Assembly (NCBI GenBank): GCA_964410905.1 | Contig: CAYPIR010000001.1 | Coordinates: 21,861 to 85,860 of the forward strand | DNA length: 64,000 nucleotides | Origin: an uncultured bacterium | GTDB taxonomy: Bacteria > Omnitrophota > Omnitrophia > Omnitrophales > Aquincolibacteriaceae | Direction of reading: 5' to 3' | Translations under genes and position numbers: made by a program | Shown: one piece after another, positions 5,222-6,430 of the stretch | Layout of the letters: the number at the start of each line of letters is the position of its first letter | Position numbering within the stretch: position 1 is the first letter of the stretch | The notes under the pieces: model-generated | What the model saw: only the letters and a program-made list of their open reading frames with translations | What the model was told of the DNA's origin: nothing | Databases searched by the model: none

Positions 5222-6216
5222 TTTCGCTGCTCCCGCATTGAATTAAATCCCTCAGCCATTTTTAAAAACAGCGCTATTAACTGATCGCTTTTGCCAATTG
5301 TTTTAAGAAATCTGTGATAAGGCTTATCTTTTAACCAATTTTTCATTACTTCAAAATTTTTAATCGCATTTTTCAGCTTTAATTTTTTGCAGCGCCATTT
5401 CACATCATAGACATAAAATCTGTAAAAAACCAAACGGTTCCTATAATTTGCTGCGGATTTTTTTAGCTTTTTATTGTGGAGAAATAAATCGGGCAAGAGA
5501 TTGGGCGATATGCGATTTAAAAGTTTTGCGGCAAAAAACAATGTCGCTTCGCAAGATGCCTTTTGGGCATTTTGAAAAACTCTTTTCCAATCAAAATTAG
5601 GATTAGTTTCGAGCAAATATTTAATGTCAAAAAGAGCAAACAAAACTCCGCCTAGGGTTGTTTTGTAATGCAAATTTCGGCTTATGTTGGTCAGCGCGAC
5701 AAATACAAAATCCTCAGGGGTAGGCACAAACGCTCTCGCGCCGAAAACATCTTGCAAAGTTGCCCGCGAAAAAAAGTCTCTCATTAAACTTTTGTCATAA
5801 TCAGGGACATCAAAATCAATAAAACGATGTATATCAACCGTTCCTTCGTCCGTTCCTTTTGGATGTAAGTCCGCCGAGTAGGCATTAAATTCCGCGACCG
5901 TATAGCCGAGATTTTTTGCTATCTCAAGCGACTTTCTATAATCTTCTTCGCGTACCAAAATATCTATGTCGCCCATTGCTCTGGGTAATTCCGGTCTTAT
6001 ATATTTCATCGCGCCGCCTTTTAAAATCATTGGAATAATTCCGTTTTGGTTAAGGGCGCGGACGACTTTGCCAAAATGCGCGATAAGTTTGAGGTTGGCA
6101 AAACGATGAAATTCCAGAACTCCTTTTAAACGCGGATAAATTAGGTCGGGCACGTCAAAATTAGGACGGGATTTTATTGTATACGAGAGAAGTAAAATTT
6201 TTCTGCCATCCGCCAA
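5212..6216 (-). CDS. nucleotidyltransferase family protein (uncharacterised NTase, PF14907-like); true start probably upstream at ATG 6428-6430 in a repeat-dependent frame
   Basis: Minimal-nucleotidyltransferase motif GDIDILV is preceded by LKGGAM. The track start is a TTG with no Shine-Dalgarno sequence. The same reading frame stays open for a further 56 codons upstream, running through the (CAAG)n tract to 6431 (protein-like sequence DTNRLSFLKEDKVFWAEEAFYQEIV...). Confidence 0.7.
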   Translation of the reverse strand: MADGRKILLLSYTIKSRPNFDVPDLIYPRLKGVLEFHRFANLKLIAHFGKVVRALNQNGIIPMILKGGAMKYIRPELPRAMGDIDILVREEDYRKSLEIAKNLGYTVAEFNAYSADLHPKGTDEGTVDIHRFIDFDVPDYDKSLMRDFFSRATLQDVFGARAFVPTPEDFVFVALTNISRNLHYKTTLGGVLFALFDIKYLLETNPNFDWKRVFQNAQKASCEATLFFAAKLLNRISPNLLPDLFLHNKKLKKSAANYRNRLVFYRFYVYDVKWRCKKLKLKNAIKNFEVMKNWLKDKPYHRFLKTIGKSDQLIALFLKMAEGFNSMREQRKCS

Positions 6217-6376
6217 TTCGATATCAAAATCGATGAGAAAATCATCTAGTGTTTTTTGCGTGGATTCTTCGCGGAAAGCAAGATCGATAAGTTTTTGGTC
6301 TTTTTGCGAAACAATTTCTTGATAAAACGCTTCTTCCGCCCAAAAGACTTTGTCTTCTTTTAAAAAACTTAATCGA

Positions 6377-6430
6377 TTAGTATCTTGCTTGCTTGCTTGC
6401 TTGCTTGCTTGCTTGCTTGCTTGTAGACAT
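6377..6430 (-). other. ATG-initiated 17-codon frame (MSTSKQASKQASKQARY*) running through the repeat; it is +1 out of frame with the nucleotidyltransferase ORF at 10 repeat units
   Basis: ATG at 6430-6428 (minus strand), stop TAA at 6379-6377. The frame joins the downstream nucleotidyltransferase frame when the unit number is a multiple of 3 (9 or 12). Confidence 0.55.
6384..6423 (-). repeat. tetranucleotide simple-sequence repeat (CTTG)10 on the plus strand, equivalent to (CAAG)10 / GCAA-type on the coding minus strand
   Basis: Direct count gives 10 perfect units. The repeat is translated as (SKQA)n in two frames. Confidence 0.95.

Follow-up and report, generated by a model that had tools for sequence, protein, structure and literature searches.

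Does the perfect (CAAG)10 tract at the 5′ end of a nucleotidyltransferase (NTase) gene in an uncultured Omnitrophota bacterium form a frameshift switch, and in which phase was the gene caught by sequencing? The tract lies in a 64,000-nucleotide stretch of contig CAYPIR010000001.1 (assembly GCA_964410905.1), referred to here as the window, and the NTase gene that follows it is the first gene of a cassette of uncharacterised function (Table 1). Analysis of the reading frames, the homologues and the predicted fold leaves little doubt that the locus is built as a repeat-driven frameshift switch and was sequenced in the OFF phase. Every static prediction held, and the locus is well supported as a candidate contingency locus mediated by a simple sequence repeat. 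By analogy with characterised systems it is also probable that the tract switches in nature, as a phase-variable gene controlled by slipped-strand events.

The tract was delimited using Tandem Repeats Finder, which reported a period of 4, 10.0 copies, 100% matches and 0 indels at 6384..6423 on the minus strand (CTTG on the plus strand), beginning 7 nt downstream of an ATG at 6430. It is bordered on either side by unique sequence (GAGTTTAAGAATGTCTA and ATACTAATCGATTAAG), and the minus-strand reading across the locus is gagtttaagaATGTCTA(CAAG)10ATACTAATCGATTAAG. Repeat scans showed that this is the sole repeat in the window with a period of at least 2 and at least 4 units, and none of 100 dinucleotide-preserving shuffles yielded even a 5-unit tract with two or fewer mismatches. 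The tract is real and well beyond chance. It has the dimensions of a slippable repeat, with a unit that is not a multiple of three and 10 units where about six or more are expected, and it reads as the same four codons (CAA, GCA, AGC and AAG, encoding Q, A, S and K) in all three frames, so that no frame contains a stop within it.

Translation across the tract reproduced the arrangement that an earlier note on this DNA had described. The frame opened by ATG 6430 runs through all 10 units and encodes a 17 amino acid peptide, MSTSKQASKQASKQARY, which ends at a TAA (6379..6377) two codons past the tract. The NTase frame is +1 relative to this ATG; it is open from 6431, immediately after a TAA at 6434..6432, and runs through the repeat to a stop at 5212..5214. 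It includes 56 codons that lead up to the annotated TTG start at 6216, the first being a GAT whose G closes the repeat (6384); over these the earlier note had likewise found no stop. Between the upstream stop and TTG 6216 the NTase frame holds no ATG, GTG or TTG, and the third frame terminates five codons past the tract. The note had further predicted that 9 or 12 units would place the gene ON and 10 units OFF, and this was borne out when the locus was rebuilt in silico with 5-15 units: alleles of 6, 9, 12 and 15 units gave proteins of 400, 404, 408 and 412 amino acids, respectively, and all other unit counts gave peptides of 13-25 amino acids, with both OFF frames reaching a stop 2-5 codons beyond the tract. 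The sequence upstream of TTG 6216 (...gattttgatatcgaa) lacks a purine-rich Shine-Dalgarno element, as had also been claimed. The sole candidate ahead of ATG 6430 is a weak GAG at -12 to -10; most genes of the window are preceded by a GGAG, GAGG or AGGA element. A minus-strand scan of the interval from the ETF gene to ATG 6430 yielded no sigma-70-type promoter.

In order to locate the true N-terminus of the NTase, the translation from just after the repeat (389 amino acids, whose numbering is used for residues throughout) was searched against 5.8 billion proteins. There were 123 homologues, among which the only 100% match was P0001, the deposited 334 amino acid product of the TTG start. All others were at most 50% identical, mostly 380-400 amino acids long, and covered residues from about 17 to 389. 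Their N-termini lie 20-45 residues before a conserved FY.E..S..DQ.LL.LAF motif, which in the window is encoded upstream of the TTG (AFYQEIVSQKDQKLIDLAF). In an alignment of 24 sequences, L31, Q42 and L45 were invariant and Y20, E22, F36, F48, D53, I54 and E55 were at least 90% conserved, and an AlphaFold2 model built on this alignment (mean pLDDT 85.9, pTM 0.82) placed helices at residues 11-23, 26-36 and 42-51, within the segment that a TTG start would delete. Position 20 of the PF14907 profile aligns to residue 64, and the domain thus starts before the TTG, which corresponds to residue 56. With 9 units, initiation at ATG 6430 would place 33 residues ahead of the FY motif, within the range of the family.

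Judged from the alignment and the model, TTG 6216 is not the natural start, because the 55 codons upstream of it are conserved coding sequence predicted to form three helices, and ATG 6430 is the start that the family points to. The 10-unit allele is translationally OFF, since no other start codon can supply the conserved N-terminus. Two ways around this were considered and rejected. Initiation at a non-canonical codon would fall at the first ATT, residue 23, which has no Shine-Dalgarno sequence and would remove the conserved F19, Y20 and E22; programmed +1 frameshifting at the end of the mini open reading frame (AGA TAC TAA) is not feasible as the P-site tyrosine tRNA cannot re-pair in the +1 frame. 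The annotated 334 amino acid protein is a gene-calling artefact on an OFF allele, and the family-typical product is the protein of about 404 amino acids made from ATG 6430 at 9 units. The deposited annotation (window 5212..6216) is wrong in this respect, as it represents the phase-OFF allele of that longer protein.

Tetranucleotide loci of Haemophilus influenzae other than those with CAAG repeats include lic1A and lic2A (CAAT) and lgtC (GACA). The motif found here is a circular permutation of GCAA. For H. influenzae, CAAG tracts of 5-31 units are listed in lex2A, oafA, lav and yadA-like genes, most tetranucleotide tracts are placed at the start codon or shortly after it, units are lost or gained at a rate of about 1e-4 per generation, and the peptide encoded by the GCAA repeat is hydrophilic and positively charged (Power et al., PMC2651432). 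The Omnitrophota locus shares with the CAAG loci the motif, the position of the tract directly after the start codon, a unit not divisible by three, a tract that is stop-free in all frames and followed at once by stops in the OFF frames, a hydrophilic, positively charged tetrapeptide repeat (KQAS here) and a unit number, 10, that falls inside the 5-31 range. The claim of the earlier note that this is a classic contingency-locus layout is upheld in motif, position and unit range by this comparison (PMC2651432). The targets of such switches in H. influenzae are glycan-modifying enzymes, to which the NTase cassette can be likened. The two differ in that the window belongs to Omnitrophota and not to a host-adapted Pasteurellaceae pathogen, and in that the tract precedes a PF14907 NTase gene, the first of an HPr-kinase-like/PqqD-like cassette, in place of a known lipooligosaccharide gene; a single tract was found in 64 kb where H. 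influenzae has a set of phase-variable genes, and the switch described here is a candidate one. The architecture is classic, and what is new is the lineage and the target gene family.

If the locus behaves as its counterparts do, slippage in the CAAG tract during replication would restore the NTase frame by the loss of one unit or the gain of two, so that ON and OFF cells would be mixed in the population, with rates close to 1e-4 per generation like those measured for the H. influenzae tetranucleotide tracts. Because the NTase heads a tightly packed operon (followed by the HPr-kinase-like, PqqD-like and family-2 glycosyltransferase (GT2) genes), the switch would control the NTase directly, and expression of the downstream cassette genes may also drop through lost translational coupling or polarity. 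By analogy, such a switch would vary a surface or secreted glycoconjugate. The cassettes of relatives sit in glycosyltransferase islands, the usual kind of target for phase variation, which supports the switch reading.

Several observations weigh against switching in nature, and they are given here with the outcome of the search for relatives. A single assembly spans the tract and no repeat-number polymorphism was observed; the ON allele, of about 404 amino acids, was not among the 5.8 billion proteins. No tetranucleotide tract was present in any of 119 homologous proteins or 146 related loci, and none of the 119 homologues carried an N-terminal tetrapeptide repeat of the kind that an ON allele elsewhere might show. 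A scan of JGI metagenomes with the NTase protein recovered no close relative, and a scan of the same collection with the family alignment recovered only relatives of at most 54% identity, with no tetranucleotide tract. The best match among species-representative genomes was approximately 50% identical, the organism itself being absent from that set. The earlier note had proposed that orthologues without the repeat and without the upstream open frame would speak against a switch; the orthologues lack the repeat and have the upstream frame. The Shine-Dalgarno sequence at ATG 6430 is weak. The tract stands alone in the 64 kb, and nothing there points to a wider set of phase-variable genes in the genome, several tracts per genome being a usual and not strictly defining feature of contingency loci. 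Since the organism is uncultured, how often the tract would switch, what the cell would gain by it and what the cassette does have all been inferred.

The explanation that competes best with a switch is a frameshifted pseudogene, in which one slip inactivated an unneeded, horizontally acquired gene and no adaptive, reversible switching takes place. Such a history would account for a consensus allele that is OFF and for an ON allele that is in no database searched, and it would suit a cassette whose closest NTases (51% identity or less) are in other phyla and which is interrupted by an extra ATPase gene. As to the NTase itself, the PF14907 match (NTP_transf_5, an uncharacterised nucleotidyltransferase family) scored 92.5 bits against a gathering cut-off of 31.2, and the Pol-beta-type motifs KGGAMK and MGDIDIL, which follow the pattern G[GS]...D.D, are present and invariant in the alignment. 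No solved structure was found by sequence search with the NTase, and in Foldseek its model resembled MenT1, ANT(2'')-Ia and LnuA and, more weakly, FKRP, all of which are Pol-beta-fold transferases. The condition of the gene argues against inactivation. Leaving the phase of the repeat aside, its 389-codon body is free of stops and other lesions, and all residues invariant in the family are present. The NTase of a second strain, on Logan contig L001 (SRR11845624), is just as intact, with a single residue changed. On this sequence evidence the NTase is not a decayed pseudogene, because it is intact save for repeat phase and all family-invariant residues are kept. The tract is perfect, although unselected repeats accumulate interruptions, and a perfect tetranucleotide tract of 40 nt is intrinsically reversible, which would make a permanent OFF state mechanistically hard to sustain. 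An inactivated gene is accordingly an improbable explanation of the locus.

It is less probable again that the count of 10 units is an assembly or consensus artefact, with 9 or 12 units in the dominant allele and a gene that is simply ON and bears a harmless KQAS-rich N-terminus. The window derives from a metagenome-type assembly (P0001 is found on one NCBI contig only), assemblers pick one path at repeats, and short-k assemblies fail to resolve the CAAG tract. The neighbouring genes of the organism were found by exact-protein look-up in SRR11845623, SRR11845624, SRR11845625 and SRR27197510, and those Logan contigs (k=31 assemblies) that extend to the tract, found in SRR11845624 and SRR11845625, are all cut off within it: L001 starts there, and L002 and L003 end there. 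These breaks show only that a pure-repeat 31-mer is present (about 8 units or more) and give no unit count. Ordinary reads, however, exceed the 40 nt of the tract, as do the larger k-mers that metagenome assemblers use, and the tract contains no partial unit. For the count to be wrong, reads would have to disagree on the number of units, and that is already length heterogeneity; the hypermutable architecture would remain even so. Very improbable is the use of TTG 6216 to give a functional, N-terminally shortened NTase, with the repeat in a leader or upstream open reading frame and no on/off role: automatic annotation chose this start (P0001) and the catalytic motifs KGGAMK and GDIDIL come after it, but it has no Shine-Dalgarno sequence, it cuts away the conserved three-helix segment and the first Pfam-domain positions, essentially all full-length homologues begin well upstream, and the upstream open reading frame ends approximately 160 nt before it, too far for translational coupling.

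Table 1 Features of the CAAG locus and the cassette that it heads (window coordinates)
Feature	Position	Strand	Basis
CAAG slippage tract (proposed)	6384..6423	-	Tandem Repeats Finder, repeat scans, shuffles
ATG that opens the ON-phase gene; no other start codon precedes the conserved N-terminal region	6428..6430	-	Translations, unit simulation
OFF-phase mini open reading frame of the sequenced 10-unit allele, MSTSKQASKQASKQARY plus TAA	6377..6430	-	Translation
NTase frame (PF14907, NTP_transf_5), including 55 conserved codons upstream of the TTG, KGGAMK and MGDIDIL	5212..6431	-	
TTG, start in the deposited annotation (334 amino acid P0001), residue 56 of the conserved protein	6214..6216	-	
HPr-kinase-like/ScmC-like P-loop protein (GQRGKST); second cassette gene, ATG overlaps the NTase stop by 10 nt	4133..5221	-	
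PqqD/ScmD-like peptide-binding (RRE-type) protein; third cassette gene, abuts the kinase-like gene	3637..4131	-	
AAA_14/DUF4143 ATPase, between the PqqD-like and GT2 genes	2338..3531	-	
Family-2 glycosyltransferase (GT2); conserved fourth cassette member in relatives	593..2266	-	

In the window the cassette is neighboured by ETF genes, the AAA_14 ATPase gene and the GT2 gene. The order NTase, kinase-like, PqqD-like and GT2 is kept in most of 80 related genome loci, and in two relatives that were examined in detail the cassette runs on into arrays of GT2 and family-8 glycosyltransferase (GT8) genes, an NAD-dependent epimerase gene and a methyltransferase gene. The AAA_14/DUF4143 insertion between the PqqD-like and GT2 genes is confined to this lineage; its product matches the PADLOC candidate defence family PDC-S01 (E = 2.8e-27). 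The PADLOC models gave no match to the NTase, the kinase-like or the PqqD-like protein, and an anti-phage defence role for the cassette was rejected on these grounds. The DNA ligase encoded in the window, the one marker used for the phylum assignment, had its best named matches (56-67% identity) exclusively in Candidatus Omnitrophota metagenome-assembled genomes (MAGs), whereas the nearest NTases (51% identity or less) were from MAGs of gut and rumen Alphaproteobacteria, Gastranaerophilales, Bacteroidales and Desulfovibrionaceae. Because the kin of the ligase are all Omnitrophota and those of the NTase are in other phyla, the cassette was probably acquired horizontally by an Omnitrophota-like genome. 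Many relatives (L005-L007, L013-L017 and others) show a gap of approximately 390 nt between the tblastn matches to the HprK-like and PqqD-like proteins, and the kinase-like gene is longer in L087 (508 amino acids) and fused to a PqqD-like part in L136 (497 amino acids). These features suggest an extra domain or small gene that has no counterpart in the cassette of the window.

The likely activity of the cassette was approached by comparison with known systems. In lasso-peptide tailoring, the C-terminal serine receives a phosphate from an HPr-kinase homologue, and a hexose is attached to the phosphate by a nucleotidyltransferase (PMC8498205). The window resembles the tailoring of pseudomycoidin and paeninodin in that a nucleotidyltransferase is encoded together with an HPr-kinase-like P-loop protein and a PqqD-type protein, and by this analogy the three genes suggest phospho-glycosylation of a peptide or protein. 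Beside the cassette, neither the window nor the two relatives examined showed a lasso cyclase (Asn-synthase-like), B2 protease or precursor gene; the cassette of relatives differs from lasso tailoring in continuing into GT2, GT8, epimerase and methyltransferase genes, and no phase variation has been described for the lasso systems. The best NCBIfam matches of the two genes downstream of the NTase were to SynChlorMet (ScmC, ScmD) and HprK-related kinase A/B families (TIGR04249, TIGR04248, TIGR04352 and TIGR04355), with scores for ScmC/ScmD and HprK_rel_A/B of 19-31 bits against cut-offs of 100-200, a level that indicates resemblance only and not membership. No radical SAM/SPASM partner was present among the cassette neighbours scanned. 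As a working inference by analogy, the cassette would add a phospho-sugar, phospho-glycosyl or nucleotidyl group to a peptide, a protein or a surface glycan.

Other tracts of a hypermutable kind were noted in the cassette and its relatives. On the minus strand of the window, a G8 run preceded by A8 lies at 2268..2275, separated by 1 nt from the ATG of the GT2 gene that follows it (593..2266); it is the only G/C homopolymer of at least 7 in the 64 kb and is either a Shine-Dalgarno-like run or a possible second hypermutable tract. A second switch at this site was considered and rejected, as the run was G8 in all three assemblies that cover it (the window, L089 and L090), with no variation. In two rabbit-gut Gastranaerophilales MAGs, a G10 (L055, 5897-5906) and a G9 (L056, 5850-5858) lie 46-47 nt upstream of the NTase start within a homologous upstream region, next to a putative -35 element in each; the two tracts are one G apart in length. 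Metagenome contig L136 carries a G10 at 465-474, 11 nt upstream of the NTase start, where a G9 would put an upstream ATG in frame, and contig L143 ends in (CT)19 (1-38), approximately 55 nt upstream of the NTase start. These cases hint weakly that the head of the cassette attracts hypermutable tracts in several lineages, and the poly-G tracts of 9-10 (L055, L056 and L136) lend the switch reading of the window weak support; Gastranaerophilales MAGs are rich in G/C runs generally, and the recurrence may be coincidence. A wider reading, tentative and rather doubtful, is that the cassette moves horizontally as a module for phospho-glycosylation of some surface or secreted molecule, that different phyla have independently brought it under hypermutable repeats ((CAAG)10 within the open reading frame in Omnitrophota; in Gastranaerophilales and one further lineage, G9-G10 at the promoter or leader), and that it may be a general contingency target.

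Elsewhere in the window, which has a G+C content of 41.8% and nearly all of its long open reading frames on the minus strand, an R.Pab1-type restriction endonuclease gene (PF09522) and an overlapping Type II methyltransferase gene form a complete restriction-modification pair (12730..14630, minus strand) between the acyl-CoA dehydrogenase/ETF genes and glgB, with no associated repeat tract. A 204 amino acid protein (62830..63444, minus strand) combines a Lys/Ala/Val-rich, histone-H1-like repetitive N-terminus (KKAVKKAVKKAIKKVAKK...) with a DksA/TraR-like C-terminal region, and imperfect DNA repeats of 12, 24 and 36 nt at 63351..63438 encode its basic tail. A bacterial class A RNase P RNA gene (183 bits; 33135..33529) and two tRNA genes (33559..33632 and 26875..26948) are also on the minus strand.

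Repeat-driven contingency loci are mainly known from host-adapted pathogens such as Haemophilus, Neisseria, Campylobacter and Helicobacter, and no published literature linking Omnitrophota with phase variation was found. The four-gene cassette, widespread in gut and rumen Alphaproteobacteria, Gastranaerophilales, Bacteroidales and others, is uncharacterised and worth study. If the switch at its head is real, the contingency strategy would extend to an uncultured phylum of debated lifestyle, which would hint at host, prey or phage selection on a variable surface or secreted glycoconjugate. Should the wider reading of the cassette also be true, uncultured Omnitrophota would use Haemophilus-style phase variation toward hosts, prey or phages.

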